Source: Hormiphora californensis (Eukaryota; Animalia; Ctenophora). From it: DNA of 64,000 bases. Below, one piece after another: positions 1,278-44,215 of this stretch (position 1 is the stretch's first letter; each line of letters starts with the position of its first letter). The stretch spans positions 5,952,001 through 6,016,000 of the forward strand of contig CM035350.1 in the NCBI GenBank assembly GCA_020137815.1, in the 5' to 3' direction. A model generated the notes under the pieces. That model worked only from the letters and a program-made list of their open reading frames with translations. It had not been told where the DNA came from and made no database searches. Position numbers and translations under genes: made by a program.

Positions 1278-1727
1278 AGGTTGACAAGATACCTAAAACT
1301 TTTCGTATATCGTCTTATTTTGATTTATCATTAATTTTCAGCATTTTTTCAGAATTTTTTGTCGGCTAGAAAAAAATTCGAAATAGGGGGTCTACCGATA
1401 TTGTCAGCACTGGTTTTACTGGGCACACTCACTGCGTCTCGCAAATTGAAATTCACGTTTCCGGTTCCTCAAAAGATAAAGACTTGATCTTGGTTGCGTT
1501 GGATTGGTCTCAATAAGACCTTTCCAACGCTACCAAAACGGTTTCTGTATCTCATCAGGAACCGGAGATATTACGTTATCAATTTTAAAAAAGGCACACT
1601 CATTTGTCAGTAGACCCCCTATTTTGCACATATTTCTAGCCGACAAAAAATTCTGAAAAAATGCTGAAAATTAATGATAAATCAAAATAAGACGATATAC
1701 GAAAAGTTTTAGGTATCTTGTCAACCT
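1278..1727. mobile_element. Kolobok-type MITE
   Basis: About 95-bp TIRs with AGG...CCT termini and TTAA TSD (1274-1277, 1728-1731). The right TSD ends 3 nt before the ATG of Rho copy 1. Confidence 0.8.
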
Positions 1728-1734
1728 TTAAGCG

Positions 1735-2328
1735 ATGTCCGACGTTGTAGACACCCATGACCCAAAATGGCGTACTATGATACGTCTAAAGTTTGTTGCA
1801 GTTGGTTCCCGTGCCGTGGGAAAGACCTGTATGCTGATTCGCTACTTCAGAAAGGGTAAACTTCCCGATCCCGAGATACACCTCCCCAGATTATATGATG
1901 GCCAAGACAGGCAAGTGGAGTATGATGGTAAAATGTACGATGTGCTATGTTCGGATACGTCCGGTGAAACAGAGTATGAAAATAGACTACGATCTGAGCT
2001 GTCTGACCCTGATGCATTTCTGCTACTGAATGATGTGAATGATAAAAACTTCGAAGATGTTGCAACTTTCTGGTGGGAAGAGTTGAAGCGTTTCTGTCCT
2101 GGAGTTCCTGTGATTTTGGTGGGTTCAAAGGTGGACTTGAGGGATGAGAACAGCGTGAGTTTTGAGGAGGGTCGTCAGATGGCAAAAAAGATCGGAGCAG
2201 CGTGCTATATGGAGTGTTCGTCTAAAGATGACATCGGAGTTACAGAAGTCTTTGAAAAAGCAGTTAAATTAAGTGTTAAGAGAGGATATCGAAATTCTGT
2301 CAAGAACAAAAAGAAAGATACAGAATAG
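1735..2328 (+). CDS. Atypical Rho-family GTPase, copy 1 (intronless, no CAAX)
   Basis: GSRAVGKT P-loop, DTSGE switch II, SKVD G4, ECSSK G5; ends KKKDTE. Confidence 0.85.
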   Translation: MSDVVDTHDPKWRTMIRLKFVAVGSRAVGKTCMLIRYFRKGKLPDPEIHLPRLYDGQDRQVEYDGKMYDVLCSDTSGETEYENRLRSELSDPDAFLLLNDVNDKNFEDVATFWWEELKRFCPGVPVILVGSKVDLRDENSVSFEEGRQMAKKIGAACYMECSSKDDIGVTEVFEKAVKLSVKRGYRNSVKNKKKDTE

Positions 2329-2543
2329 TATTTTGTTTTAAACATTTGAAGTTAATAAACATGATTACCGAAAACGGGTTTCCTACTTTTTATTTTTTCG
2401 AAACGATGTTTGTATTGAATATTAAATATTGATTATTTATTACATATATGTTTGGACTTTGGCTGATTATATGTGCCTTTTGTTCTCCAATCCACACCAG
2501 TCCCCAGCTTCGTTCAGTGTTCTACCACATGAAACACTTATTC

Positions 2544-3166
2544 GGCACTGCCAGGAAAGCCCGACCACTAACAAAAGCACTGGCAAAACCATAAACAAAA
2601 ACACTAACAAAAACACTAACAATTCTTATGAGGTAGATGAAGTGATACAATTCTAGGGCTATAGGCATACTGATCACGATCAGTATGCTTATAGCCTAAG
2701 GCGCCTTATTAGCACTGTGAAACAATACGGAGTATAAAACATGCGATTTGGGGAACCTTATTAGCAGTCTGAGATGATACGAGATTTGGAACATGATTCC
2801 GCGAGGCCTATGAGGAATGTTAGACGATATGAGACACGATTCGGGGAAGGTTGCCCTCTCTTTCCCTCCATATTCATCCCCTTGGTGGCGCAGTCACCTT
2901 ACAACGAGTTGTTTTGTCTCAAAACCCGAATCGTGTCTCATATCGTCTAACATTCCTAATAGGCCTCCCCGAATCACGTTCCAAATCTCGTATCATCTCA
3001 GACTGCTAATAAGGTTACCGAATCTCATGTTTTATATCCTGTATTGTCTCACAGTGCTAAATTAAATTTTTAGTGGTTTTGTTAGTGGTTTTGTAAGTAG
3101 TTTTGTTAGTAGTTTTATTAGTGCTTTTTGTCTTTTAGTTAGTGGTCGGGCTTTCCTAATAGTGCC
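2544..3166. mobile_element. MITE-like element (possibly Merlin-type) with internal roughly 50-bp inverted sub-repeats
   Basis: ggcactgccaggaaagcccgaccactaac pairs with gttagtggtcgggctttcctaatagtgcc; flanks acttattc/acttaatc. The internal repeat unit recurs at 46200-47200. Confidence 0.5.
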
Positions 3167-3196
3167 ACTTAATCCAATTTATCACCAATACAAGCA

Positions 3197-3775
3197 ATGT
3201 CTGTAGATGAATTTAACCCAAAATGGCCTTCTCTAAAGTTTGTTGCAGTTGGTCACGGTGCCATGGGAAAGACCTCTATGCTGATTCGCTACTACAGAAA
3301 GGAATTTCCCGAATATACTCCAACTGTCTTTGATGCCGAAACTAAACCCGTGGAGTATGGTGGTCAAATGTACAATGTGGGTTGTTTCGATACGGGTGGC
3401 GGAGAAGACTATGCTAGGCTACGACCTCTGTGTTATCCTGAAACCGATGCATTTCTGCTACTGAATTCTGTGAATTATAAAGACGATTTTGAAGATATTG
3501 CAACTTATTGGTGGCCAGAGTTGAAGCATCACTGTCCTGGAGTTCCTGTGATTTTGGTGGGTTCAAAGGTGGACTTGAGGGATGAGAATAGTGTGAGTTT
3601 TGAGGAAGGTCGTCAGATGGCAAAAAAGATTAAAGCAGCGTGCTACATGGAGTGTTCTTCAAAAGAGGATATTGGGGTTACGGAAGTTTTTCAAGAAGCG
3701 ATTAGACTGGGTGGTGAATACCTAGCTACCAAAAAGAACAAAAAGAACAAAAAGAAAAGATGTAATTTACTTTAA
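3197..3775 (+). CDS. Atypical Rho/Rac-family GTPase, copy 2
   Basis: GHGAMGKT, YTPTVFD, DTGGGEDYARLRPLCYP, polybasic tail plus CNLL CAAX. Confidence 0.92.
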   Translation: MSVDEFNPKWPSLKFVAVGHGAMGKTSMLIRYYRKEFPEYTPTVFDAETKPVEYGGQMYNVGCFDTGGGEDYARLRPLCYPETDAFLLLNSVNYKDDFEDIATYWWPELKHHCPGVPVILVGSKVDLRDENSVSFEEGRQMAKKIKAACYMECSSKEDIGVTEVFQEAIRLGGEYLATKKNKKNKKKRCNLL

Positions 3776-4367
3776 AACCTCTGAAGTTTTTTCCCTGTAA
3801 CTCTTTTTTTGGAAGTTGAAAATACGTAAAAATGGGTATTTCTATGTTTTAAGATTTATATTGGATGCATGTATGTACTTATATGTATATCCCAGTGCGG
3901 TAAGGCGTAGCGTTACTTGCCTTGTTCGACCCTCCTTCCCCTCGCCCCGTGTTACATGCGGCTTGGGAAGATGTTATCAAGTAAATCTGTTGGTATGTAT
4001 CTTCAATGAGCGAATTATTGTTTATTTGAGTGAGAGATTTTAAATTTATTTATTACCAACCCCAACACCGGGGGCAAATGATCGAACCCAATGTGTATGA
4101 GACTCACTGCGATTAACTCTACACATAGTTACCCCCTTTCTCTCTTCGGCAGCTTCTCCTCGGCTGTTGAAAAGTGATGCCAATCGATGTTGGGGTTCGT
4201 GAAAAAAATGAAAAGATTCAATGAGCGTTCCCTATCTAGCAGTTTTTAAGCATAATATAACAATTTTGTACAATTTGCAGCCTGTTTGACTCTTTGAAAC
4301 TGTTTGTGTCTAATCTGTTTGGTTTTTCTTTCTATGAATGAAAGTCTTTTCGTAGGATCGATAAAAT

Positions 4368-4938
4368 ATGACTGGTAATGATGATTCAACCGTGGTTAAG
4401 ATTGTCCTTCTTGGTCACTACACTATGGGAAAGCACTCCCTTCTTTATAGATTCTGTCACGATACCTTCAACTCAGAGACATGTGGTGTCGAGGAAATAA
4501 AAATAAAAAACATTGTGTGTAACGGTGAAAAGTTTCGTATTCAATTTTTAAAGCCGATTGGTGGTGAGCGATTTCATACCATCAGGCATTGCTATTATCC
4601 GGGGAGCTGGTGCCATACTTGTTTTAGCTGACATAACTGACTTCGGGAACTTCAGGGACGCTGAGAAATATTGGTGGCCTGAACTCCAGCAGTATGCTCC
4701 TGAAGTTCCTGTGATTTTGGTGGGTTCAAAGGTGGACTTGAGGGATGAGAACAGTGTGAGTTTTGAGGAGGGTCGTCAGATGGCAGAAAGGATCGGAGCA
4801 GCTTGCTATATGGAGTGTTCGGCTCTTACTGGAGAGGGGGTGAATGAAATTTTGGATCACGCCATGGAAATTCGAAATATTCCACCAACTACCAACAGAG
4901 AAGCAGTAAAGTCAAGGAAAAGATGCTTAATTTTGTAA
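4368..4938 (+). pseudogene. Divergent Rho-family GTPase, copy 3, with a +1 frameshift in a G run near 4601-4604 (pseudogene or assembly error)
   Basis: ORFs 4368-4631 and 4558-4938 join as ..YYPGAGAILVL.. if one G is removed from ccggggag; CLIL CAAX intact. Confidence 0.75.
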
Positions 4939-5140
4939 AGATTTTTTTATAGTTTTTGGGATTGCATCTACAAAATATTCTATTCAACCTTTTTTTCGTG
5001 CTAAAATTTCTCTAGGACGAATAGTTTCTGGCATCAGAGCAGTTGCATAAAATTAATACCCTTTTTTTAAAAACATTTTAAGCTTTTAAAACAAATTTTT
5101 TTTCATCATTTCATTTTTTGTACAGAATAGGCACTGACAT

Positions 5141-5698
5141 ATGGCTGTGCCAAAACCCAGGATAAAAATTGTACTGGTTGGCCAAACGGGATGTGGTCAA
5201 ACAAGTCTTCTTCATCGACTGTATGGCGCCCCTTTTCCACCTACCGGCACTCCAACCATTTTTGATATCCGTTCTAGAATTTGGACCGGGAAAGATGGTC
5301 AGAAAGTTTGGTGGGCTGCTTGGGACACATCTAGTAGTGGTAATGATAAACTCCGGCCACTCTGCTATCCAGAAACAACAGTTTTTCTTATTGTTGTGAA
5401 CATTTCTGAACCAAAAGAGCTATATATATCTATTGCTAAATCAAGGTGGAGAAATGAACTGAAGCATCATTGTCCTGATGTTCCTGTGATTTTGGTGGGT
5501 TCAAAGGTGGACTTGAGGGATGAAAACAGTTTTAGTTTTGAGGAAGGTCGTCAGATGGCAGAAAGGATCGGAGCAGCGTGCTATATAGAGTGTTCAGCTC
5601 TTACTGGAAAGGGCGTGAATGAGGTTTTTGTTCAAGGTGTCGAACTATCGATTTTTCATCTTAACAATTTACATCGGAAGAAATGCATTGTTTTATAA
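5141..5698 (+). CDS. Highly divergent Rho-family GTPase, copy 4 (P-loop K to Q)
   Basis: GQTGCGQTS, PTIFD, WDTSSSG, KLRPLCYP, CIVL CAAX. Confidence 0.85.
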   Translation: MAVPKPRIKIVLVGQTGCGQTSLLHRLYGAPFPPTGTPTIFDIRSRIWTGKDGQKVWWAAWDTSSSGNDKLRPLCYPETTVFLIVVNISEPKELYISIAKSRWRNELKHHCPDVPVILVGSKVDLRDENSFSFEEGRQMAERIGAACYIECSALTGKGVNEVFVQGVELSIFHLNNLHRKKCIVL

Positions 5699-5995
5699 AT
5701 ATGCTTTTGTAAATACTGAGTTAATTTTAATTATGATTTTGTTTATTATCAATTTTTGTTCAAATACATAAAAAATGCAGATTTTCCCCCTAAGATGTGT
5801 CAGACCCCAAATTTGTAATGCCGCAGCCCACACCAACAGAATTTAGATACTAACTGGCCATATCCCTTGGCTTGCTTGACCCTCTATCCCCCCTCTATAT
5901 AACCTCTTCAAAATCGTATGCTGGCCTAAAAATTACCTTTCAACTTTTTCTTTGTTAGGTAATGTAAACCCTGTATATCCAATATTCCACTAGCG

Positions 5996-6583
5996 ATGGT
6001 AAATCATCATGTTAATGATGTTTGGAATCCAGATTGGCCAGCTCTTAAATTTGTTGCAGTTGGTTCCGGTGCTATGGGTAAAACGTGTATGCTGATTCGC
6101 TACTTCAGAAAGGAATTTCCCGAGAAATACATCCCCACGGTCTATGATAACCACAATACCCACGTGGCGGGGTGTGATGGTAAAATGTACAACATGTCAT
6201 GTTGGGATACGGGCGGTGGAGAAGACTATCACGTGTTACGTCCTCTTTCATATCCCGACACCCATGCGTTTCTGTTACTTAATTCTGTTGAGTACAAAGA
6301 CCAATTAGAATCTATTGAAACTTATTGGTGGCCAGAGTTGAAGCATCATTGTCCTGGAGTTCCTGTGATTTTGGTGGGTTCAAAGGTGGACTTGAGGGAT
6401 GAAAAAAGTTCGAGTTTTGAGGAAGGTCGTCAGATGGCAAAAAAGATTAAAGCAGCGTGCTATATGGAGTGTTCTTCAAAAGAGAATATTGGAGTTACCG
6501 AAGTTTTTCAAGAAGCAATTAGACTGGGTGCCGAATACCAAGCTACCAAAAAGAACAAAAAGAAAAGGTGTAATTTACTTTAA
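5996..6583 (+). CDS. Atypical Rho/Rac-family GTPase, copy 5
   Basis: GSGAMGKT, YIPTVYDN, WDTGGGEDY, CNLL. Confidence 0.92.
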   Translation: MVNHHVNDVWNPDWPALKFVAVGSGAMGKTCMLIRYFRKEFPEKYIPTVYDNHNTHVAGCDGKMYNMSCWDTGGGEDYHVLRPLSYPDTHAFLLLNSVEYKDQLESIETYWWPELKHHCPGVPVILVGSKVDLRDEKSSSFEEGRQMAKKIKAACYMECSSKENIGVTEVFQEAIRLGAEYQATKKNKKKRCNLL

Positions 6584-6634
6584 ACCATTTATTTTATTAT
6601 TATTTGAAGTTAAAGAATAATGGGTTTTGTTACA

Positions 6635-6991
6635 GCTTTTTGGCCTAAAAACGGTAATTGGCGCTGAAAAAAATCGAGAAAAACCATTCCGCCATAGGGG
6701 TGGCGGAATGGTTTTTCTCCAAAATTTGCTCGATTTTTTTTCAGCACCAATTACCGTTTTTAGGCCAAAAAGTCAATGTTTTTATTGTTTGAGGTATGGG
6801 TTTTCGAATTTTGGCGGAGCGAGAGCGAAGTCCAGATAATTTTGAATTTTGAAGTTTTGACAAATGAAAAACAAGTGGTTTTTTTTTTCAAACAATTGTT
6901 TCACTACCAGCGGTAGATCATCAGACTGATGATCTACCGCTGGTAGTGAAACAATTGTTTAGGAAAAAAAAACCACTTGTTTTTCATTTGT
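6635..6991. repeat. Two long hairpins (about 6635-6772 and 6860-6991), probably non-autonomous DNA element(s)
   Basis: ttttggcctaaaaacggtaattgg pairs with ccaattaccgtttttaggccaaaa; aaacaattgtttcactaccagcggtagatcatcag pairs with its reverse complement around a very short loop. Confidence 0.7.
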
Positions 6992-7308
6992 TTTCTGCTC
7001 TCGGTCCTGGATTGATTGAGCTCTCTCGTGTGATTCGAATACTCACTTTGAAGTTTTGAAGTTTTGATTGAAATTTTGGCCAAAATTTCAGCCCCCACCC
7101 CCTGTTCCTCCACCCCTGCGTTGATAACTTTTTCGAAACGATTTGCGATAAAAATGATAGCTTATTATGTGTCCAAGTGTGAAATTGTTTGTATGACCGG
7201 CCCTGATGACAAACTTGTTTAACTTTACCGTACACAAGTATCCTTGGTAAATTTCCTAATAACTATTTATGCATTTATTTAAAGACATCTTTCTTCCACT
7301 AGAAAGCG

Positions 7309-7887
7309 ATGGATGAAGATGAGTTTAATCCAGATTGGCCTACTCTGAAATTTATTGCAGTTGGACGTGGTGCGATGGGTAAAACCTGTATGCTGATTCG
7401 CTACTTTAAAAATGAATTCCCTGAGATATACGTCCCCACTGTTTATGATAACACTATAAAACATGTGGAGTGTGATGGTAAAATGTACAATGTGACATGT
7501 TGGGATACGGGTGGTGGAGAAGACTATGATAGGCTACGACCTCTGTCTTATCCTGACACAGATGTATTTCTGCTACTGAGTGCTGTGAATTATAAAGACG
7601 AGTTTGAAGATATTGAAACTTATTGGTGGCCAGAGTTGAGGCATCATTGTCCTGAAGTTCCTGTGATTTTGGTGGGTTCAAAGGTGGACTTGAGGGATGA
7701 GAACAGTTTGAGTTTTGAGGAGGGTCGTAAGATGGCAGAAAGGATTAAAGCAGCCTGCTATATGGAGTGTTCGTCAAAAGATGACATTGGAGTTACCGAG
7801 GTTTTTCAAGAAGCAATTAGATTCGGCGCTGAATACCAAGCTACCAAAAAGAACAAAAAGAAAAAGAAAGGATGTTGTTTACTATAA
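7309..7887 (+). CDS. Atypical Rho/Rac-family GTPase, copy 6
   Basis: GRGAMGKT, YVPTVYDN, WDTGGGEDYDRLRPLSYP, GCCLL. Confidence 0.93.
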   Translation: MDEDEFNPDWPTLKFIAVGRGAMGKTCMLIRYFKNEFPEIYVPTVYDNTIKHVECDGKMYNVTCWDTGGGEDYDRLRPLSYPDTDVFLLLSAVNYKDEFEDIETYWWPELRHHCPEVPVILVGSKVDLRDENSLSFEEGRKMAERIKAACYMECSSKDDIGVTEVFQEAIRFGAEYQATKKNKKKKKGCCLL

Positions 7888-8000
7888 ATCTTTTTTATTG
7901 GTCTTTGTTAACTTTTTCGGAACGATTTGCGATAAAAATGATAGCTTTGTGTCCAAGTGTTTTGAAATTTTTGTATGGCCGGCTCTAGTGACAAACTTGT

Positions 8001-8688
8001 GTGAAACCCGATAGTTGATTTATCAGTCGTTTGAACATTTTACGCGCACACGTTAACTGCGAGATGGGGGATTTAACACCCTGCTCGCTCTTTATCAGAC
8101 CAGTGCCCATTTTCACGCGTTTCTCTTCATTTCCATAACATGCGTGTAAATTTCCAAGTAATGAAAATGTGTGTAAACACACAGTTCTGTCAATAACAGA
8201 GAGGGGAACACATCTGCAACACTTTTCAATGTTATCTCTCTCATCAAGAGGCAAAATAGTCGCATTCCATTCGTTTCTCTCTCTCATTCTCTCTTTTACT
8301 GTTCAATATCTCTCACTGTGTGTTTTGCCCCTAATCTTTCTCTCTCTTTCTCAAACATGTTAGGAACAGTAGACACTAAGTCTACACACATTTTGAGAGT
8401 GTCTGTTGACTATTTGCCAGTAGTCCTTGTGTGTTACCCCTTGTGTTGTGTCTCTTATTTGTGTGTAATTACTATCGGGTTTCATAAACTATGAACGTTT
8501 GTTAGCCTATCGCGTTATAGGTTTAAATCACCTCCCCCTCACCCTCGGCTGGCGCCTCGGGATCGGCGTCGGGATTTAAACCAGTTTAATCGCCCTGCCG
8601 GGCGATTAAACTCCAGTTGGCTGTCCCCAGCTCGCGCTGGGAACAGCCAACTTGATAACGTGCCAGTCTACAAACGTTCATAGTTCAT
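8001..8688. mobile_element. TSD-less non-autonomous element with asymmetric inverted repeat and terminal cloverleaf
   Basis: The empty site caaacttgtttaacttctgtctggc is seen in the paralogous spacer at 11191-11215. IR tgaaacccgatagt (8002-8015) / actatcgggtttca (8471-8484). Three-hairpin cloverleaf at 8487-8686. Confidence 0.75.
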
Positions 8689-8804
8689 TTAACTTCTGTC
8701 TGGCAGCGCCAGATACCGTCTTGATTCTCAATCAGTGCGCTCAAATTGGGTCTGCGGCGCCAGACAGTACCGTTCATAAGTATTTCTGGTAAATTTGCTA
8801 ACTA

Positions 8805-9970
8805 CAGAGAGGCGTGTATGGTGAAGTGCAGGGCGAGTTATTTGACCTGGTACGGGACCTGTTTACACATGCTGGTATCAAGGATTCCTTCCCGAAGAGT
8901 TTGACTGCCGGACGTAGTGTGTGGGATAGCCTGAAGTGTCCGAGCAAGAGTAAGATCAAGGGGATAAAGAAGCCAGAACTAGAGGATTTCACAGAGAAAG
9001 TGTGCCGTTTCCTGATGGAGAGGTGTTACCCGTTGCTCGACCGTCTGAGTACTGAAGTTGAAGACAATGAGAGGAAACTACTGGATAGTCAAGAGGAACT
9101 GATTGTTTCTCAGCGAGCATTGGTTGAGGCACAGGGGCAGCTGGTTAAATTGCAGTGTGAGTTGTTAGGGAAGCGAGATAAGGAGATTACTGCTGTGCAG
9201 TCTATTGCTGAAGAGGAGATAAAGACGTTTTCCTCAGTTCTGAAAAAGAGTTGTGACAGTGCTCTAGCTCCGAAACGTATTCGTACTGCAATAACGAGTG
9301 CTACAGAGGACAGGACAAGTAACGTGATTGTCCATGGACTATTTGATGATCCCAGTGAAAGTAGTAAAGATCTGGAACATTCAGTTTGTGGAGTTTTCGA
9401 CTACATGGGTGAATGTGTGACTAGTGTTTACAGCATGACGCGTCTCGGAAGGTACAAGGAGGGTACTGACCGACCTGTTAAACTGCGCCTGTCTGGCCGT
9501 GAATTTCGAGATCTGATCCTGTCCCACAAAAGTGGTCTGAAGAAGTCGGATAGGTACAAAGATCTGTACATCTCCCCGGACCGTTCCCCGGAAGAGAGAG
9601 AGGAGAGGAGGAAGTTGGTGGCTGAGCTGAAGGAGAGGAAGGCGGCGGCACCAGGCAAGACCTTTGGGATAAGAGGAGGCAAGGTTATGGAGGTGGTGGT
9701 GTGAGGGCGTGAACGTGAGCGTATTGAACTGTGTTGTTTATGTTTGTGTTTATGATTTTGACTAGGTTTTGTTACTGGACTTTGAGCATCTGAGCACCGG
9801 ACTTTTTACTAGATGGACATTTTTTGTTTCTATAGTTTATCTAGAGTTTTAGGTTTTATATACAGAGGTGAACCGCTCTGAAGCTCCGTAGTACTAGTGT
9901 TTTTTGGATTCTGGTACCCTACGGGGTCTGAGCGTGTATATAAATTCTGTTATTATTATTATTATTATTA
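8805..9970 (+). mobile_element. Non-LTR-like retroposon carrying only a LINE ORF1-like coding region (ORF 8814-9704), with a (TAT)n tail
   Basis: Coiled coil followed by RTSNVIVHGL..RLG...RPVKL..LYISPDRSPEEREERRKL, typical of CR1/Jockey-group ORF1. TAACTA TSD at 8799-8804 and 9971-9976. No RT present. Confidence 0.75.
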
Positions 9971-9998
9971 TAACTATTTGTGCCTCTTTCTTCCACTA

Positions 9999-10251
9999 GG
10001 GGAAACTCTAACTGAATGCCCGCACAGTAATGGCGTCCCATCACTGGTAAAACTCTAATTTAATGGACGGAATGATGGAAGAATGCGCGACCATGCTCGT
10101 GTGTTTGTCATCGCGCCCTACGTAACAGCCTTTTTTTGGCAAAATTTGTGGCAAATCCTGACGCGCACAGAGTGATGACTCCCATTATCAGTTAGATTTT
10201 TACCAGTGATGTGACGCCATTACTGCGCAGGCATTCAGTTAGAGTTTCCCC
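9999..10251. mobile_element. PIF/Harbinger-like MITE
   Basis: About 70-bp imperfect TIRs GGGGAAACTC...GAGTTTCCCC with a 3-bp CTA TSD. The empty site ccactagaaagcgATG precedes copies 6 and 8. Confidence 0.8.
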
Positions 10252-10261
10252 CTAGAAAGCG

Positions 10262-10906
10262 ATGGATGAGGATGAGTTATATCCAGCGTATAATCCAGAT
10301 TGGCCTACTCTGAAATTTGTTGCAGTTGGATATGGTGCGATGGGTAAAACCTGTATGCTGATTCGCTACTGTAAAAATGAATTCCCTGTTTATGAATTTC
10401 CTGTTTATGATAACAGTATAAAACATGTGGAGTGTGATGGTAAAATGTACAATGTGACATGTTGGGATACGGGTGGTGGAGAAGACTATGATAGGCTACG
10501 ACCTCTGTCTTATCCTGACACCGATGTATTTCTGCTACTGAGTGCTGTGAATTATAAAGACAAGTTTGAAGATATTGCAACTTATTGGTGGCCAGAGTTG
10601 AAGCATCACTGTCCTGATGTTCCTGTGATTTTGGTGGGTTCAATGGTGGACTTGAGGAATGAGAACAGTTTTAGTTTTGATGAGGGTCGTCAGATGGCAG
10701 AAAGGATCGGAGCAGCGTGCTATATGGAGTGTTCGTCTAAAGATGACATTGGAGTCACCGAGGTTTTTCAAGAAGCAATTAGACTGGGTGGCGAATATCA
10801 AGCGATAAAAAAGAACAAAAAGAAAAAGAAAGGATGTTATTTACTAAAGGTCCCCCCAAACTACTATGTCCCTTGCTGCGCGCGACCGGATTTTAGACGG
10901 CCATAG
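10262..10906 (+). CDS. Rho-family GTPase, copy 7; stop codon displaced by a MITE, probably decaying
   Basis: Near-identical to copy 6, but switch I is YEFPVYD, G4 is SMVD, and CYLL is read through into 19 MITE-encoded residues. Confidence 0.75.
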   Translation: MDEDELYPAYNPDWPTLKFVAVGYGAMGKTCMLIRYCKNEFPVYEFPVYDNSIKHVECDGKMYNVTCWDTGGGEDYDRLRPLSYPDTDVFLLLSAVNYKDKFEDIATYWWPELKHHCPDVPVILVGSMVDLRNENSFSFDEGRQMAERIGAACYMECSSKDDIGVTEVFQEAIRLGGEYQAIKKNKKKKKGCYLLKVPPNYYVPCCARPDFRRP

Positions 10907-11074
10907 CTCCACCCCCTGATAAGATAGAGACTTGAAATTTGTTTTGTAGGGAGATCATATCGAGTTCTTCGTACAGAACAAATTTCAAGCTTCTATCTCA
11001 TCAGGGAGTGGAGTTATGACCGTGGGAAATTTCACAAAACCCGAGTGAGGGACATAGTAGTTTGGGGTGTACTT
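10847..11074. mobile_element. MITE inserted immediately before the stop codon of Rho copy 7
   Basis: TIR ccccaaactactatgtccct / agggacatagtagtttgggg with a TA duplication. The original TAA and 3' flank resume at 11077, matching 7885 onward. Confidence 0.8.
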
Positions 11075-11350
11075 TATAAATCTTTTTTATTGGTCTTTGT
11101 TAACTTTTTCGGAACGATTTGTGATCAAAATTATAGCTTTGTGTCCAAGTGTTGTGAAATTTTTGTATGGCCGGCTCTAGCCTCTAGTGACAAACTTGTT
11201 TAACTTCTGTCTGGCAGCGCCAGATACCGTCTTGATTCTCAATCAGTGCGCTCAAATGGGGTCTGCGGCGCCAGACAGTACCGTATTACATATGTATTTC
11301 TGGTAAATTTTTCTAGCTATTTAAAGACATCTTTCTTCCACTAGAAAGCG

Positions 11351-11944
11351 ATGGATGAGGATGCGTTATATCCAGCGTGTAATCCAGATTGGCCTATTCT
11401 GAAATTTATTGCAGTTGGACGTGGTGCGATGGGTAAAACCTGTATGCTGATTCGCTACTTTAAAAATGAATTCCCCGAGATATATTGCCCTACCGTTTTC
11501 GAAAATAATCTTAAACATGTAGAGTGTGATGGTGGAATGTATAACATATCATGTTGGGATACGGGCGGTGGTGGAGAAGACTATGATAGGCTACGACCTC
11601 TGTCTTATCCTGAAACCGATGCATTTCTGCTACTGAGTGCTGTGAATTGTAAAGACGAGTTTGAAAATATTGAATCTTATTGGTGGCCAGAGTTGAAGCA
11701 TCATTGTCCTGATGTTCCTGTGATTTTGGTGGGTTCAAAGGTGGACTTGAGGGATGAGAACAGTGTGAGTTTTGAGGAAGGTCGTCAGATGGCAGAAAGG
11801 ATCGGAGCAGCGTGCTACATGGAGTGTTCTTCAAAAGAGAATATTGGAGTCACCGAAGTTTTTCAAGAAGCGATTAGACTGGTTGGCGATTACCAAGCTA
11901 CCAAAAAGAACAAAAAGAAAAAGTTGAAATGTAACCTTTTATAA
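11351..11944 (+). CDS. Atypical Rho/Rac-family GTPase, copy 8
   Basis: GRGAMGKT, YCPTVFEN, WDTGGGGEDY, CNLL. Confidence 0.92.
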   Translation: MDEDALYPACNPDWPILKFIAVGRGAMGKTCMLIRYFKNEFPEIYCPTVFENNLKHVECDGGMYNISCWDTGGGGEDYDRLRPLSYPETDAFLLLSAVNCKDEFENIESYWWPELKHHCPDVPVILVGSKVDLRDENSVSFEEGRQMAERIGAACYMECSSKENIGVTEVFQEAIRLVGDYQATKKNKKKKLKCNLL

Positions 11945-12171
11945 AACCTTTTAAATAAAGAAATAAGTTTTTTTTAAGTAAAGAAATAAGTTTGTTAAAA
12001 ATATATTTGTTCGTGTGTCTTTTGTAAAGAATATTTTCTACCTGAAATGTTATTTTTAATCGTCTAGTTAGCGAATTTATCCCGAACAGCAGTGGAGCTC
12101 CACTTTCGCCTGATTCCATGTTTCATTTAAACTTCGCTTCTGCATTCTTTCAGCACATACAGGAGAACGAA

Positions 12172-12729
12172 ATGATATCGGATATCAAGACGATTTTTGT
12201 TGGTCATTGCAACATGGGGAAAACATCTCTTTTACTTCGATACCATTTGGGCACATTCCCCGACGAAAGAAACTCTATTTCGTTTGATAATTGTAAGCCA
12301 TCTCAGTTGAATGTCAAGGGGGAGACTGTTAATCTGGGGTGTTTTGATACTAGTGGTGGGGAGGATTATGAATCTCTTCGTCCATTGTCTTACCCGCAAA
12401 CTGATGTTTTTGTTCTTTTAGCAGCTATCGACAACTTAGAAAATTTAAAAGATACAGAAGAGTATTGGTGGCCAGAGTTGAAGCATCATTGTCCTGATGT
12501 TCCTGTGATTTTGGTGGGTTCAAAGGTGGACTTGAGGGATGAGAACAGTGTGAGTTTTGAAGAGGGTCGTCATATGGCAGAAAAGATCGGAGCAGCCTGC
12601 TATATGGAGTGTTCAGCTCTTAACGGAGAGGGGGTGAATGAGGTTTTCCAGAAAACTGCAGAAGTGGGCCTTGAGTACTTTTCAAATCTGCCAAAACCAA
12701 CGAAGAGAAAGCACTGCACAATTCTTTGA
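12172..12729 (+). CDS. Divergent Rho-family GTPase, copy 9
   Basis: GHCNMGKTS, DTSGGEDYESLRPLSYP, CTIL. The ATG at 12172 aligns with the paralogue starts better than 12118. Confidence 0.88.
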   Translation: MISDIKTIFVGHCNMGKTSLLLRYHLGTFPDERNSISFDNCKPSQLNVKGETVNLGCFDTSGGEDYESLRPLSYPQTDVFVLLAAIDNLENLKDTEEYWWPELKHHCPDVPVILVGSKVDLRDENSVSFEEGRHMAEKIGAACYMECSALNGEGVNEVFQKTAEVGLEYFSNLPKPTKRKHCTIL

Positions 12730-13608
12730 TTCTTTCTTGTAAAAACAAAGCAATCGTTTGTTAATCAAGTAACAATTGTTTGTGCCTAATATGCCTCATC
12801 TTGCCTAGCTAGACTCTGTTTCGCGGAGGGTTAGAACATAACAAGCCTTACCGTAAACTTTCTTAGTTAGCGGTATGTCTTCTGAACCAGGGGACTCGAC
12901 ACGGTTTTGCATCCTTGGCACACAGGCAAAACAACTCTCTGCTTAAGGGTACACCTGGCGTTTTTCATCATCGAGTGCCCAACCAAATGACTTCACCAGG
13001 GTTTAGGCCATACAAAATGGACCTCAAATATGCAATTTTAGCCCTAAATTCGAATTCATATTTTTGCTACAGCCTATTTTCAAAGTGGCGTTTTTTCAAA
13101 TTTTGTTGGATTTTTTAACCTCAGGACCACTTTTTTTGAGATAGAAACATTAAATTCTTGGAATTTGAAGAGAATGTAAAGGTGAATAAGCCCAAAGAAG
13201 GATTTTTGAAATGGAGCTTATTTCTGGCCATGAGAACGGTTTACTTTTTTGCTTCTTTGACACGCTGGCTGAGAATGTTCCCATGCTTCATTAGAGATGA
13301 AAATCTGGAAATAGTTGCTCAAAACGATTATCTATGTGGCCCAAAAATTTTGGAACTTTCCCGCCAAAGATGTGGTGTACAGAGCTTGTTTTGTGAAACC
13401 CGTCTTTTTGAAAAAGAGGGGAATTCTCTGTATCTCAAAAACGGATGATCGTAGAGACCTGCGACCAAGCTTAATCGATTCAGAAGGTCCGATTTTGGGG
13501 GAGTCTTCTGAGAGACATTTTGCTCCTACTCCAACCGTTTTTGCTGTAATTGCGAAAAAGGTATCAGCAAGTAAGGGGGAAATCAGCCCGAAGCAGGCTA
13601 CTGGAATA

Positions 13609-14179
13609 TTTTGTAGCTCACGTCCCCACGATCGCCCTGTCTGTACTCTCACAAAATGTATTGTCTGTCCTTTGATCACCAGTGACAAGTATGATTGCAG
13701 AATAAAGGGTGTTGTATATAGAGTTAAGTGCGAGCTATGCCAAGAGTTCTATGTGGGTGAGACCGCACGCCCAATACATGACCGGATGCTAGAACATCGG
13801 CGGGCGGCGATCAACCCCACATCAACATCATACCAGAACAATGCATTTGCGACACACTATAAAGAGACACACGAGGGTAGTACCCCTATTTTAAGTTTGG
13901 AAATACTGAAATCGAATCTTTCGAGAACTATACAGAGAAAGATTAGTGAAGCTGATTTCATACAACAACTGAAACCTACTCTGAACAACAAGAAAGAGTG
14001 TGAGAGTGCTCTAGGCTTCCTAGTCAGTAATAGTTGATAAGTCCTAGAGTACTCGTCATAGCTCTGTGTATAGTACAATCTGAATTTATGTATATCTGAT
14101 CCGATGTGAGAATGAGTGAGAGAGAGGGGGAGAGAGTGAGAGATAGAGTTTGTGAGTTGAGTAGAGAGAGTAAGTGAGA

Positions 14180-14261
<82 letters not shown>

Positions 14262-14491
14262 TATAGAGAGTGAGAGTGAGAGAGATAGAGAGTACGTGAT
14301 TGTTTTGATATGAATTTCGATTTTGATTCCTATTCCTAATATGTTCTATTTTTAGCTACTACTGATGATGGTGTTAAACACCGAAATATCTGGTTTCATC
14401 CAATAATATCCAGCGAGTCTAACTTGTCCAATAAACACAAGAACTATTATCAATCATGAGACTCAAGAATAGTCAAGCGCTACATTATTTG
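13609..14491 (+). mobile_element. 5'-truncated Penelope-like retroelement (GIY-YIG endonuclease end plus 3' region)
   Basis: GVVYRVKCELCQEFYVGETARPIHDRMLEH...RKISEA.FIQQLKPTLN; 10-bp TSD TACTGGAATA at 13599-13608 and 14492-14501. Confidence 0.85.
14358..14394 (+). ncRNA. Minimal type I hammerhead ribozyme motif of the Penelope-like element
   Basis: acta-CTGATGA-t-ggtgt/taa/acacc-GAA-ATAT-C-tggt: core boxes, stem II, short palindromic stem III and 4-bp stem I. Confidence 0.6.
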
Positions 14492-15987
14492 TACTGGAAT
14501 AGAGTTGTTCCCCCTTTTCATAGAATTGGTTTTTTGCAATTACAGCAAAAACGGTTGGAGTAGGAGCAAAATGTCTCTCAGAAGACCCCCCCAAAATCGG
14601 ACCTTCTGAATCGATTAAGCCTGGTCACAGGCCTCTACGATCATCCGTTTTTGAGATACAGGGAATTTCCCTCTTTTTCAAAAAGACGGGTTTCACAAAA
14701 CAAGCTCTGTACACCACATCTTTGGCGGGAAAGTTCCAAAATTTTTGGGCCACATAGATAATCGTTTTGAGCAACTATTTCCAGATTTTCATCTCTAATG
14801 AAGCATGGGAACATTCTCAGCCAGCGTGTCAAAGAAGCAAAAAAGTAAACCGTTCTCATGGCCAGAAATAAGCTCCATTTCAAAAATCCTTCTTTGGGCT
14901 TATATTCACCTTTACATTCTCTTCAAATTCCAAGAATTTAATGTTTCTATCTCAAAAAAAGTGGTCCTGAGGTTAAAAAATCCAACAAAATTTGAAAAAA
15001 CGCCACTTTGAAAATAGGCTGTAGCAAAAATATGAATTCGACTTTAGGGCTAAAATTGCATATTTGTGGTCCATTTTGTATGGCCTAAACCCTGGTGAAG
15101 TCATTTGGTTGGGCACTCGATGATGAAAAACGCCAGGTGTACCCTTAACCCTCGCTAACGAAGCACCACCAAATCCGGAGTACCTGCCCGCTGTTTTCTC
15201 TACAAACAATCATGTAATTGTCAAAGACATGCCTTTAGAATTTCTTGATGTTAGCGCTCTACGCTGGGATCGAATCGCCGAGGAACGTCCTATCTATTTA
15301 CCGTTCGTGTTGGACAAGGCGAGACTTGCAGTCATAACATTCTGCGTTACAGATACTTTATCATATAGGAGTGATGTCAAGAAGATGGTGGATGCTGTTA
15401 GGACTCACAAGCCCCGGGAATGGATTCCTATTGTCCTGGTTGCTACCAAAACAGATCTTCGCGGCAAAGGTTGTGATACAGTCTCTGAGATTCAGGGTCG
15501 GTCATTGAGTCGGAAAGTGGGAGCACGGGCGTATTTTGAAGTTTCGGTTGTTGATGGTGGTGTACCTGCCGTTCAACACTTGTTTGAACAAGTCGTTGAG
15601 ATATTAGAAGAATCTAACAGTGTGAGATATCATGGTGGTCGTCGGTGCTGTGTGTTATAACATGTGTGTGTACCTCGCAGTGGGTGTCTGGGATTGTTTT
15701 TGTTTCGGGATGAAAATAGCTTTTAAGTGCGAATGCATCACACACACACATTATCCCACACGGCGATCTCCCACCGGTTGTTTCTAATGTAAACACACAC
15801 ACCAAATCAACCAGACACATGTGTGAATGATCTGTAGTGAAATGCGAATTCATACCAAGCCAATAATGTTTTTTAATCCCCAAAAGTTTATAGTTATACC
15901 ACGAAGAATTATCCCCTTTTAACTCAAACACATAAACTCTTGTCGAACAAGGCAAATAAACTCTATCTTTTTACATATAGCTGCAGA

Positions 15988-16959
15988 ATGGCAAACTTGA
16001 AGTGTGTTTGTGTGGGTGATGGAGCAGTGGGTAAAACTTGTCTTCTCATCTCGTACGCTCAGGATCGCTTCCCTACCGAATACATTCCCACTATATTTGA
16101 CACTTACACCAAGATTCTATCTATGGATGAGGAGGGGATTGGAATTGTAAATCTCAATCTGTGGGATACTGCTGGTGAGCTTATCATCTTTAAAGAGTTT
16201 TGTAGTTTACTGAAAATAGGGTGACATAAAGTCCTCCGTGAGTAAAAAGCGTGTTTGTCCGTGGAGTAGTTTCGACTTTCGAGATTCGTAATTCACTTTC
16301 GGGTTTTGTGTCCGTCTGATGTGATGTAATGCAGTTACCCTTTAACAATGATTTCATACAGGACAGGAGGAATTCAGTACCCAGAGATCGTACGCCTACC
16401 CTGGTACAGATGTGATTCTTATCTGCTTTGCAGTGAACTCTCGGGCCAGTTACAATAACGTCAAAAGCCAGTGGGAAAAAGAGGTACATTATACATGAGA
16501 TGGTTAATTGTATCGATAACATTGAATTTCTTCCAGAGTACATTTTGATTAATGAAACTTCAAAGAAACTAAATTCAGAACAACCCAACATTGTTTTGCA
16601 GGTGAAGAGTTTTGCACCGAGCACACCATTTATTCTGGTGGGGTTGCAGTGTGATAGGAGGGAGAGCGAGGCTGAGAATACTCTTATTTCAATTGCGGAA
16701 GGGTACTCCCTTCAGCAACAGGTGGGTTAATCAGCAGGGTGATTTAGAAGTTTTTGTTGAACCTAGTATCTTTTTTATTCTAACGACTCTGTTTCCATAT
16801 ATCTAAGATATTGTGTTATTCTTCTAGATCGGGGCTCTCAAGTATGCAGAGGTTTCATCACTCAAGATGATTGGAGTGGAGGCACTGTTCAGAGATGCAA
16901 TAATTGCAGCTGTTAAGGGACCGGAAGAGAAAAAGAAGTCATGTTGTACACTCTTGTAA
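15988..16959 (+). CDS. Rac/Cdc42-like GTPase, copy 11 (exons 15988-16174, 16362-16483, 16602-16721, 16828-16959)
   Basis: [20 protein letters not shown]^QEEF, CTLL; GT-AG introns keep the frame. Confidence 0.88.
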
Positions 16960-17350: not shown

Positions 17351-19140
17351 ATGGCGGAGAGACAAGTGAAATGCGTTGTCGTGGGGGATGGCAATGTTGG
17401 TAAGCACTTTGTTTTGATTTTTTGATTGTTTGTTTGATTGTTTGTTTGATTGTTTGTTTGATTGTTTGTTTGATTGTTTGTTTGTTTGCATGTTTGTTTG
17501 TTTGTTTGTTTGTTTGTTTGTTTGTTTGTTTGTTTGTTTGTTTGTTTGTTTGTTTGTTTGTTTGTTTGTTTGTTTGTTTGTTTGTTTGTTTGTTTGTTTG
17601 TGTGTTTGTTTTTCATGTAGTATGTCCTACTAACCATGCAATTATTCCTTTGTCACTGTGAGTGTCATTGGAAGAAAGTACACACAGTGCTGCTTGTAGT
17701 CGTATTACCGTAATGAAAATACAGTAAGAAGACGCGCACGTTGCATAACACGCGGCAAAAAGTGCATGTGTTCAGCACGTACTAGCGCCCTGATTGGTCA
17801 CGGTTGCGTGTCGTCTTACTGTATCTCGGTTTTCCATTACCGTTTTCCCACTACAAGCGACCGTGACAGACTCATGTTACAACTGTGTGAGGATTATGTG
17901 TTACTTGCAGCAGGTACATAGTACCAGTAGCTACATAGTACCACATAATACCACGTAGCTAATACTAATAGCTATTACAGTACCAGTATTACCATTAACT
18001 ATAGTAGTACCGTTACTACCAATAGTACCATGATACCAGTACGAGTCCGACCTGCCACTCTCATTCCATGTTCTAACAACCCCCCCCCCCCATTATAAGG
18101 TAAAACATGCATGCTGATATCATACTGCACGGACGCCTTCCCGGGAGAATACCGACCCACTATATTTGATAACTACACCACCACTGTCAAGTTCCAGGGA
18201 GCCAACGTCAAATTGGACCTATGGGATACCGCTGGTGAGCGATAACTTGTTACGTTTATTGTGTATGTAATCCGACCTGATAACGCCTGTTTGTGAACTG
18301 TGTGCGTCATTAAACAGGACTAGTAACATATCAACTTGTTATTGCATCAAGTACCCCATATAGCAGGCAAACTAGACTTGTTATGTTCTAACATAGTCTA
18401 GCTAGGCAGGTAGTTGAGTAGCAATAACCATCCATGTTTCTAACTACCTTGTAACTTGTTGAGTAACCACTCATCAACTTGTAACAGGACAAGCGGAGTA
18501 CGATCGGTTACGGCCCCGAAGCTACCCTGAATCGGATGTGTTTCTTATTATCTACTCGATCAGTTCACAAGCTAGCTATAACAATGTTCGCCTAAAGTGG
18601 AACATAGAGGTATAACTATGATAATACGGATACCCAATACCCAGCAATGTGCAGCTGAAATCTCGATACAGCTCTAGAAGCTTCTACTACGTATGATTTC
18701 AAACCCAAAAACCTGCGTTTTAGCTGAAACAATATTTCACCGCACAGGTTGCCCACCACTGTCCCGGAGTGCCCGTTATTCTGGTTGCCGCTAAGAAAGA
18801 TTTGAGGAACTCAGACCCAGAATGTATCTCAACACGGGACGGCCAAGACCTTGCTAAAGAGGTACGTGTTGCCATGGGAACCCCTCACTCTTTCATTCTT
18901 CCTCCGAATCATAATATATCATCACCTCCATTACACAAGTTAACAGGTATACCTGCTTGTTTGGGTACAGCTATAATAATTATGAACCCATGTCCCATTT
19001 CTTTTCAGATAAGAGCTACCACGTTTATGGAGTGTTCCGCCCTCACATCTGATGGACTAGCTGAGGTGTTTCTCAAGGCCATCGATGTCGTCATTAATCC
19101 GGTGAAAAAGGAGAAGAAGAGCACGTGCAGATTGCTGTGA
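17351..19140 (+). CDS. Rac-like GTPase, copy 12 (exons 17351-17399, 18100-18234, 18488-18609, 18748-18861, 19009-19140)
   Basis: [22 protein letters not shown]^[19 protein letters not shown]; three intron positions shared with copy 11. Confidence 0.9.
17420..17600. repeat. (TTTG)n microsatellite in an intron
   Basis: Direct tetranucleotide run. Confidence 0.95.
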
Positions 19141-43414: not shown

Positions 43415-44215
43415 ATGGATATTGTACGTGCGTACTTTCTCGGGCTGAAGGACAATGTCAAGTGCTGCGGGAGAACGGTAACTCTCATCAGATCTGAACC
43501 CGCAATTAGATCTAAACTATTGGAGTGTTTCCTGCTCAATGGTCTAGTATTCCTCCTCTCCCTCATGCTGTTCGACTGGTTGGTGGTTCCTGTTGTCCTC
43601 TTCATAGCACCCTCTCACACCTCCCACTGGCTCTCCCTCGTTCTACAGACACTCTTCAGACTGCTATGGGTCCTTCCTCTCTACCTCATATCCAGGTTAC
43701 TCAACGTGTTCTGGTTCCAAGAGATAGCAGATATGGTTTACAGGGCGGTGAAAAGAAACAAGACGAGGAATGTAGCACCCTCAATAAGTGCTATAATAGC
43801 AGACATAGTGTACAGTGTGGTGGTTCAGAGTGTATTCCTAGTTCAGGCAGGTATTGCCAGCTCCCTCCCAGTCCTGGGTTACCCCCTCAACCTGTTACAC
43901 ATGTCCCTCGTGTACTCCATGTATGGTTTTGAGTATCTCTGGTTTAATCAGGGTATCGGTGTCAAGACGAGGGTGTCCCTGATACACCGTCACTGGCCCT
44001 ACTACGCCGGATATGGGACCCTCATGGCGGTGGGTGTGTCTGCACTGGACAGTTACTTCATGGGTGTCTGTGTGTTTAGTATCATGTTTCCCGTTCTCAT
44101 TGTAAGTGCCCATTTTGCGGGACCCACCACTGACCTCAACAAGTGCACCCCCTTACCCCTCATTAAACCAAGTATAATGATCACTGAGCAGCTTGTAAAG
44201 TTCATGCGCTGCTAG
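43415..44215 (+). CDS. EI24: EI24 autophagy-associated transmembrane protein (intronless CDS)
   Basis: CFLLNG, LWVLPLYLISRLLNVFWFQEIAD, HMSLVYSMYGFEYLWFN, WPYYAGYG. Confidence 0.88.
   Translation: MDIVRAYFLGLKDNVKCCGRTVTLIRSEPAIRSKLLECFLLNGLVFLLSLMLFDWLVVPVVLFIAPSHTSHWLSLVLQTLFRLLWVLPLYLISRLLNVFWFQEIADMVYRAVKRNKTRNVAPSISAIIADIVYSVVVQSVFLVQAGIASSLPVLGYPLNLLHMSLVYSMYGFEYLWFNQGIGVKTRVSLIHRHWPYYAGYGTLMAVGVSALDSYFMGVCVFSIMFPVLIVSAHFAGPTTDLNKCTPLPLIKPSIMITEQLVKFMRC

Follow-up and report, generated by a model that had tools for sequence, protein, structure and literature searches.

The 64,000-nucleotide stretch of Hormiphora californensis DNA analyzed here (NCBI GenBank assembly GCA_020137815.1, contig CM035350.1, positions 5,952,001 to 6,016,000 of the forward strand; hereinafter the window, to which all positions refer) encompasses nine intronless small-GTPase genes that are arranged head to tail on the + strand between positions 1735 and 12729. 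Family PF00071 scores above the cut-off in all eight unbroken copies and in both halves of copy 3, which is frameshifted in the window. The sequence-only reading of this locus had listed nine intronless Rho genes; nine small-GTPase genes are indeed present but not all of them are plain Rho genes because the middle of copy 3 is Rab-like. Five genes are referred to here as core-type Rho-like copies: copy 2 (3197-3775; Gly at position 61, no Rho insert, CAAX motif), copy 5 (5996-6583), copy 6 (7309-7887), copy 7 (10262-10906), which is likely decaying, and copy 8 (11351-11944). Copy 1 (1735-2328) is a Rho-like gene with a core-related N-terminal half (N-half), a degenerate switch II and no CAAX motif. 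The earlier description of this N-half as barely alignable does not hold: the proportion of synonymous differences (pS) between copy 1 and the core copies is 0.29-0.43, nucleotide identity is 75-80% over ~480 bp, and copy 1 groups with the core copies. The remaining three genes are more divergent. Copy 4 (5141-5698) has a divergent N-half of the Rho type, in which the P-loop Lys is replaced by Gln in this allele, and copy 9 (12118-12729) a divergent Rac/Cdc42-like N-half, both followed by the shared block described below and by a CAAX motif; copy 3 (4368-4938; 189 amino acids, CAAX) is likely, judging from its sequence, a chimera of a Rab switch region and a Rho chassis. A polybasic tail with a terminal CAAX motif is found in seven of the nine copies and is missing from copies 1 and 7.

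All nine copies lack both Gln61 and the Rho insert, and Gly12 is retained in five of the nine, namely in the core copies. Compared with RhoA, copy 6 has Gly instead of the catalytic Gln and a 12-residue deletion at the insert, and its structural model (predicted local distance difference test score, pLDDT, 86) is a G-domain without the insert helix. The PDB matches listed for the whole of copy 6 and for the N-halves of copies 4 and 9 all belong to the Rho family, and copies 1 and 4 are placed within Rho. According to the accessible parts of two reports, an insert of 10-15 residues between the G4 and G5 motifs defines the Rho family (PMC7600811, PMC8305917); given its absence from the array, we apply the label 'Rho-like'. 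Changes at positions 12, 59 and 61 mark GTPase-deficient Rho proteins that are regulated by expression, according to the available portion of another source (PMC9029563). The core copies are predicted to encode GTPase-deficient, constitutively GTP-bound, CAAX-anchored Rho-like proteins, which would be attached to the membrane, controlled by expression rather than by GTPase-activating proteins, and provided with paralog-specific effector surfaces that would be mostly under purifying selection; the chances that the biochemical roles predicted in this manner for the array proteins are correct appear to be about even.

The shared block consists of 38 codons (~114 nucleotides, from VPVIL to MECS), which encode beta5-G4-alpha4-beta6. 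It occupies, always on the + strand, positions 2104-2217 in copy 1, 3542-3655 in copy 2, 4705-4818 in copy 3, 5480-5593 in copy 4, 6359-6472 in copy 5, 7657-7770 in copy 6, 10619-10732 in copy 7, 11714-11827 in copy 8 and 12499-12612 in copy 9, and was assessed by the pS and silent-identity tests described below. As previously noticed, the first 44 nucleotides form an invariant core that starts at the first base of each block and is free of mismatches in eight of the nine copies; copy 7 has 2 mismatches, both of which change the amino acid. No other occurrence of this 44-mer was found in the window within 14 mismatches on the + strand or within 12 on the - strand. The copies differ from each other at 5-16 of 120 nucleotides over the block, near-identity reaches over ~115-150 nucleotides, and the patchwork of KKIK/ERIG/KKIG/ERIK and SSK/SAL variants near the 44-mer is present as described in the sequence-only reading. 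Copies 3, 4 and 9 have a second 3' variant in common that runs through G5. The alignment contains nine gap intervals in the N-half and none in the block, the GC content at third codon positions (GC3) is 0.51 in the block versus 0.28-0.40 elsewhere, and the codons of the block include types that are rare in the N-halves (TTG, 4%; TCA, 13%). Alpha5 and the tail after G5 diverge as well, so that the constant part is an island rather than the entire guanine-binding half.

Synonymous divergence changes sharply along the gene. In the codon alignment, in which copy 3 was read through its frameshift with X, pS between copies 3, 4 and 9 and the other copies amounts to 0.64-0.75 in the N-half (101 codons) and to 0.06-0.25 in the block (38 codons); over the 44-mer, it falls to 0.00-0.03 for copies 3, 4 and 9, and after G5, it is back to 0.5-1.0 in pairs of divergent and core copies. 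Silent identity, measured in codons for the same amino acid, is higher inside the block in all 21 pairs that include copy 3, 4 or 9 and in none of the 15 other pairs (Fisher test with Bonferroni correction, the block limits having been chosen after inspection), and a run test that requires no boundaries is significant in 16 of the 36 pairs. When separate trees were built for the N-half, the block and the C-terminal part (C-part), each region rejected the trees of the other two under the approximately unbiased (AU) test (p 0.0003-0.019), with tree lengths of 3.44, 0.39 and 3.14, respectively; the grouping of copies 3, 4 and 9 is poorly supported in the FastTree tree of the N-half. Codon bias was considered as the cause of the block identity and is ruled out by the occurrence, within the block, of codons seldom used in the N-halves; RNA structure is dismissed too because the block folds no better than shuffled sequences (z -0.3 to +1.9 in five of five folds). 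Neither is the block simply more constrained, given that its ratio of nonsynonymous to synonymous rates (omega) in the core copies, 0.43, is not below that of the N-half, 0.35. G-quadruplex and Chi-like motifs, which could act as recombination hotspots, are common in the window, with 151 and 171 occurrences.

The island is also visible in reads. Contigs derived from four runs of two samples, one of which may be the source of the window, stop at 2123, 4727, 5489 and 12492, each 30 bases inside the longest tract that the given copy shares with others, as is the case when 31-letter unitigs halt at true repeats; one more contig, which stops at 5495, does not exactly fit the 30-base offset. A related organism, denoted here organism B, has ~90-94% similarity outside the block; its contigs break in the same manner at 5474/5475, and the summed depth climbs from 29-161 to 437-2131 once the block is entered. 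In a third study, a contig of 249 bases runs through the block, is flanked on either side by copy 3 sequence and has 15 differences from copy 4 (copy 3 of the window has 16). The Tyr codon adjoining the block is TAT in all seven window copies that have Tyr at this position and TAC in every contig of organism B at this site (13 of 13 and 12 of 12), which may hint at species-wide turnover, with the reservation that contigs are not gene counts.

Taken together, the silent-site contrast, the mutually rejected region trees, the failure of codon bias and RNA structure as explanations, the reads of two samples and the presence of the block in a related species support the segment-restricted gene conversion proposed from the sequence. 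An assembly or polishing artifact, which had been named as the observation that could overturn this proposal, appears exceedingly improbable: the contigs are too short to span the array, the window contains at least one base error, in copy 3, and two stored proteins (P0004 and P0122) suggest that short assemblies can exchange tails at the block, but two samples yielded contigs in which unique flanks lead into the shared tract, the third-study contig traverses the whole block between copy 3 flanks, and the block is present in two independent gene models of Pleurobrachia bachei (P0063, 89% identity; P0130, 79% identity), joined to different N-parts. Two points nevertheless weigh against conversion as a complete account. 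The TAT/TAC contig numbers do not count genes, and even within the core copies, uniformity peaks in the 44-mer (pS 0.02 versus 0.2-0.68), which similarity alone does not explain, so that a hotspot or selection may be needed. It could therefore be proposed that selection on the DNA or RNA itself, for example on a regulatory or small-RNA target site, holds the 44-mer in place of conversion. In organism B, no 44-mer difference was seen among 40 of 193 rows, which proves little given that this organism is close. The near-identity extends well beyond the 44-mer and is accompanied by tract-like patchwork variants, there is no folding signal, a silent site beside the block is species-diagnostic, and other ctenophore lineages carry different residues in this region; we accordingly consider selection on the nucleic acid very unlikely.

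The array thus very probably contains a conversion island, and regional gene conversion is likely the best explanation of it. Conversion requires similar sequences and stops where substitutions or indels disrupt pairing, thereby freeing parts of a gene, according to the available text of a previous study (PMC3924837). Given that the beta5-G4-alpha4-beta6 segment is the sole gap-free, still similar stretch, it would keep pairing and converting across all copies in a self-perpetuating manner, whereas the flanks, with their accumulated indels and substitutions, would have escaped conversion; the core copies (1, 2 and 5-8) would still exchange more widely. Two additional observations pertain to the block. 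Its alpha4-beta6 residues are closer to those of RhoA (P0030 and other molluscan RhoA-like proteins) than to those of the Bolinopsis proteins with the DTGGGE form of the G3 motif, and the block itself may be an imported segment. The P0004 and P0122 proteins share an N-half and the block and differ in their tails, which are of the copy 4 type and the core type, respectively; this difference reflects either a true crossover inside the block or a short-read assembly chimera.

Copy 3 presents a distinct problem. Its Rab-like segment (approximately 4443-4653, +; residues ~26-95) covers the end of alpha1, switch I, beta2-beta3, switch II and beta4. Among the PDB matches, the best 60 of 137 for residues 1-77 are all Rab (best E-value 4e-10), and so are the best 60 of 63 for residues 33-77, where Rab10 is the best match and ERFHTI is identical; the matches of the next 34 residues are weak and mixed, mostly Rab. 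In the C-part, the best 60 of 139 matches are Rho family proteins, as are all 16 weak matches of the tail, and the N-halves of copies 4 and 9, employed as controls, match only the Rho family among the best 60 listed. Sliding scores favor Rab between residues 26 and ~95 and the array on either side of this segment. Overall, the segment is most similar to Rab10, Rab8, Rab35 and Sec4. The motifs RabF1 to RabF5 have been given as IGVDF, KLQIW, RFRSIT, YYRGA and LVYDIT in the accessible part of a published account (PMC8776137). All five are recognizable in copy 3 in the same order, as CGVEE, RIQFL, RFHTIR, YYRGA (in the frame of the reads) and VLADIT, the first two being degenerate. The open frame itself is supported by contigs from runs X2, X3 and X5, which are one letter shorter at 4598/4599, indicating that copy 3 is intact in those reads (X6 has no depth there). 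The mosaic occurs within a single contig, 4188-4727 (539 bases), that contains the P-loop, the Rab segment and the entry into the block; a contig of the second sample covers 4354-4677.

The best phylogenetic placement of the segment is likewise with Rab, but the AU test does not reject Rho (see below). Ten giant-virus Rab genes served as the Rab references, 8 of which (Rab1/Rab8-like) were included in trees after two duplicates had been left out. Residues 26-95 of copy 3 score 25-38 bits against all 10 of these loci and at most 21.7 bits against any Rho-type protein among 305 stored sequences, and the sole match above the Rab loci is a multi-Rab protein. Among 23 diagnostic columns, the Rab and Rho states, respectively, number 9 and 4 in copy 3, 2 and 9 in copy 4, and 1 and 15 in copy 9. 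On a fixed backbone of 25 taxa, residues 26-95 are placed within the Rabs with a weight of 0.84 and on their stem with 0.09 (0.92 for the Rab side as a whole), whereas residues 96-165 fall in Rho with a weight of 0.999, a Rab position being rejected (pAU <0.001); the controls, namely copy 4, copy 1 and P0063, are placed in Rho at 0.90-0.996. FastTree supports the Rab grouping of residues 26-95 at 0.98, and in a parametric long-branch test, the observed log-likelihood difference was +15.2 and none of the 56 null simulations exceeded 0.

Under the most skeptical interpretation, copy 3 is a fast-evolving Rho that resembles Rab by chance or through long-branch attraction. The AU test leaves a Rho placement of residues 26-95 unrejected (best pAU 0.17-0.29; 0.11-0.14 in constrained searches), the null simulation employs a site-homogeneous model, the Rab references in the trees are giant-virus rather than ctenophore genes, Gly61 of the array type and one Rho-type Arg persist inside the Rab segment, and orthologues of copy 3 did not turn up in other species; all of this tells against the chimera to some extent, and P0063, too, leans to Rab over one short stretch. 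Against such a fast-evolving Rho stand the five RabF motifs that are recognizable in order, one of them exact in the read-supported frame, the lack of any Rab preference in the 56 simulations, and the three controls that are equally or less diverged and fall in Rho, so that a Rho origin of this segment seems distinctly unlikely and its Rab ancestry highly probable. Gly61 and the Rho-type Arg, furthermore, make one clean swap a simplification. The direction of the exchange is a separate question, because copy 3 might instead descend from an entire Rab retrogene that inserted into the array and was then replaced, starting at either end, through conversion by its Rho-like neighbors. The longest segment that copy 3 has of its own is Rab-like, the likeness of alpha3 to the array fades toward the Rab segment in the manner of an old tract, and residues 9-25 are not firmly placed (Rab weight 0.21); this history is nevertheless rather unlikely because the P-loop displays the array GH..MGK pattern and is best placed with copy 9, and because alpha5 and the tail, which lie outside the block, match, weakly, only the Rho family. 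Given that the P-loop pattern, Gly61, alpha3, the block, alpha5 and the CAAX motif are all of the array or Rho type, acquisition of a Rab segment by a Rho-like gene is favored, the reverse being less probable.

Thus, copy 3 is likely, on the basis of its sequence, a Rab-switch/Rho-chassis chimera, in which an array gene would have received residues ~26-95 through a single ancient ectopic exchange, possibly cDNA-mediated and bounded by conserved motifs, with a Rab8/Rab10-type gene as the donor. Compared with Rab10, Rab8, Rab35 and Sec4, the P-loop, alpha3, G4-G5, alpha5 and tail of copy 3 are of the Rho or array type, and three functional residues have been lost: the P-loop Thr (replaced by His), the Asp of the DxxG motif (replaced by Lys) and Gln61. 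Given the loss of the P-loop Thr and the DxxG Asp, the protein is predicted to bind Mg-GTP poorly and, by analogy with dominant-negative mutants, could serve as a membrane-bound sink for Rab regulators and effectors. Among the stored proteins, none joins a Rab switch II to the block. Residues 76-100 of P0063 lean to Rab over beta4 only, which may be due to the alignment or to partial mosaicism involving a gene of the copy 3 kind.

The switch regions had been described as hypervariable and diversifying, which is not established by the present analysis. Omega among the five core copies is 0.11 in the P-loop region, 0.28 in switch I-beta3, 0.32 in switch II-beta4 and 0.35 over the N-half, no higher than the 0.43 of the block. 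Site models seem at first to indicate positive selection (M1a/M2a on one tree, p=0.035 for the core copies and 0.004 with copy 1 added), and the sites pointed at are P-loop position 11 and a site in switch I. The signal fades once recombination is modeled: p rises to 0.080 and 0.077, respectively, under four segment trees, and is, after removal of six indel-flanked columns 0.127 and 0.014; among mosaic null simulations, 8 of 25 exceed the nominal 5% line, and none of the 25 reaches the observed 11.3. Between copy 4 and organism B, there are 9 silent and 6 replacement changes among 40 of 193 rows, which looks like purifying selection. Hence the divergence of the N-halves appears to be mostly old and under purifying selection, and diversification of the switches is weakly indicated at most. 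Effectors commonly target the switch regions of Rho and Rab proteins, and the array could be viewed as a pathogen-driven arsenal of decoys or sensors, in which variable Rho and Rab switch surfaces on a constant scaffold bait bacterial effectors. Such a role would fit the nominal signal of positive selection at 3-4 sites in the P-loop and switch I-beta3 (including the p=0.014 obtained with copy 1 in and the indel-flanked columns out, and the statistic of 11.3 that no null reached), the loss of catalytic residues, the Rab-type surface within the same array, and the expansion of the family in other ctenophores. The low omega values, the p of ~0.08 with segment trees, the frequent false positives under mosaic nulls, the conservation of copy 4 between species, and the absence of a sensor domain or immune neighbor among the proteins scanned with Pfam profiles all argue otherwise, and we consider an arsenal of this kind unlikely.

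Several features within and around the array complete the description of the locus. In copy 7, the G4 Lys is replaced by Met and the switch I Thr by Pro, the stop codon has been moved by an insertion, and the CAAX motif is no longer terminal; a short TA-flanked inverted-repeat element (10847-11072, no strand assigned) sits just before the original stop. Lacking a terminal CAAX motif, copies 1 and 7 may both be in decay. At position 5198, where the window encodes Gln in the copy 4 P-loop, organism B has Lys, and near 5421-5425, the reads also carry a copy 4 allele that is 6 bases shorter. The ATG of copies 5-8 is preceded, at a distance of 2-6 bases, by a pyrimidine-rich stretch with the motif ...CCACTAG or CCCCTAG, which resembles a splice or trans-splice acceptor. 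An inverted-repeat element with TTAA ends (~1275-1731) terminates 3 bases upstream of the start of copy 1; contigs of three runs connect the end of this element to a copy-2-like start (1725 to 3186), a hint of other haplotypes or copies. Between copies 6 and 7, a repeat of high depth contains a 229-amino-acid open reading frame (ORF) without a Pfam match (9015-9704), which is likely part of a mobile element. Downstream of the array lies a tenth, highly divergent small-GTPase gene (12876-15660, +) that lacks the block and is split by a TTAA-flanked 2.2-kb element (12943-15148) with 619-bp inverted ends; its 5' piece is apparently out of frame at the P-loop. The two genes that follow (15988-16959 and 17351-19140, both +) are Rac-like, contain introns, keep Gln61, lack the block and have a shortened insert; they may be related to the gene from which the intronless array arose. 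Farther away are a reverse-transcriptase-like ORF, judged by eye (36716-38524), and an intronless EI24-like gene (43415-44215).

The array belongs to an expanded ctenophore group of Rho-like proteins that lack Gln61 and the insert. The closest named relatives of its proteins are from ctenophores, namely P. bachei gene models and several 'Rac1-like' proteins of Bolinopsis microptera, and the DTGGGE type is encountered again in numerous ctenophore-like proteins as well as in RCL1 of Phallusia. The Rac-like DTGGGE proteins of Bolinopsis (P0015, P0022, P0023 and P0124) resemble the array in having Gly at position 61 and a shortened insert, several Bolinopsis copies being located on a contig of one and the same length, and differ from it in that their G4-G5 region varies between paralogs; at the protein level, to which this comparison is limited, the island appears specific to the present lineage. 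RCL1 (P0091) has Gly at position 61, like the array, and a full insert, unlike it. The combination of a DTGGGE-form G3 with a full insert is seen, outside the array, in L001, L004 and P0091, and the Gln61-to-Gly Rho-like proteins may constitute a wider, older group or have originated repeatedly. Among the best 150 block matches in the 50% library, only P0063 and P0130 reach at least 79% identity. The block pattern has no matches in JGI metagenome contigs, where the DTGGGE pattern is found at 5 loci, of which only L003 is ctenophore-group-like and ends before the block. No relatives of the copy 9 and copy 4 N-halves were detected at strict thresholds among 64 and 1 candidates, respectively, which is not evidence of absence.

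A variable/constant design is already known from other tandem families, and the conversion mechanism is known as well. In the available text on the clustered protocadherins of fugu (PMC1852091), the 3' region of tandem paralogs is homogenized down to silent sites and has raised GC3, next to divergent 5' specificity regions; there, whole domains of hundreds of codons are converted within subclusters, whereas here 38 codons within one globular G-domain are common to copies that are otherwise saturated. In TLR1/TLR6 (PMC2077338) and the zebrafish NLR-B30.2 genes (10.1101/027151), as far as the accessible portions of these reports go, conversion in one part crosses subgroup limits and the other part is group-specific; these are immune receptors with demonstrated ligand roles or positive selection, whereas for the array both would be conjectural. 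The photoprotein arrays of Mnemiopsis (PMC3570280) similarly consist of head-to-tail ctenophore genes with GENECONV-backed concerted evolution, but whole genes remain similar, and the available part of that report describes no island between saturated paralogs. The array resembles Rnd, RhoH and RhoBTB, as covered by the accessible text of PMC9029563, in that Gln61 and, for most copies, Ala59 are replaced; it differs in that the five core copies keep Gly12, the insert is missing and the family is multicopy, and the likeness does not imply orthology. Finally, EhRho1 of Entamoeba functions as a Rho despite the missing insert, but it comes from an unrelated lineage, and neither a conversion island nor a Rab segment is described in the portion of the source at hand (PMC8305917).

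The whole picture, a conversion-held island of 114 bases in nine Rho-like genes without Gln61 and the insert, one of which, copy 3, has a Rab-derived switch region, appears probable. A bolder extension, in which a converting array of dead Rho-like scaffolds captures foreign switch regions, copy 3 is a functional hybrid and the island is a crossover point for combinatorial baits or adaptors, is speculative and rather unlikely to hold in full. A search of freely accessible papers, conducted mostly at the title level, turned up no report of this array, of a 38-codon conversion island in a small-GTPase domain, of an expansion of Rho-like proteins in ctenophores, with or without the insert and Gln61, or of a naturally occurring Rab/Rho hybrid, and the main text of PMC11797021 mentions no Rho, Rac or GTPase.

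The split between the Rho and Rab families dates from a very early stage of eukaryote evolution, and the two are, to our knowledge, treated as non-recombining. If the present interpretation is correct, a natural open-frame gene with a Rab switch region in a Rho frame would imply that effector specificity is movable between families and would provide a test of G-domain modularity. Conversion of a 38-codon piece within a single domain of paralogs that are otherwise saturated would be a clean case for the study of tract limits, and islands of this kind would mislead gene trees and short-read assemblies. In the accessible part of a review of non-bilaterian Rho proteins, Mnemiopsis is credited with one Rho, one Cdc42 and no Rac (PMC7600811); an expanded group of Rho-like proteins devoid of the insert and Gln61 would alter this picture of ctenophore cytoskeletal signaling.

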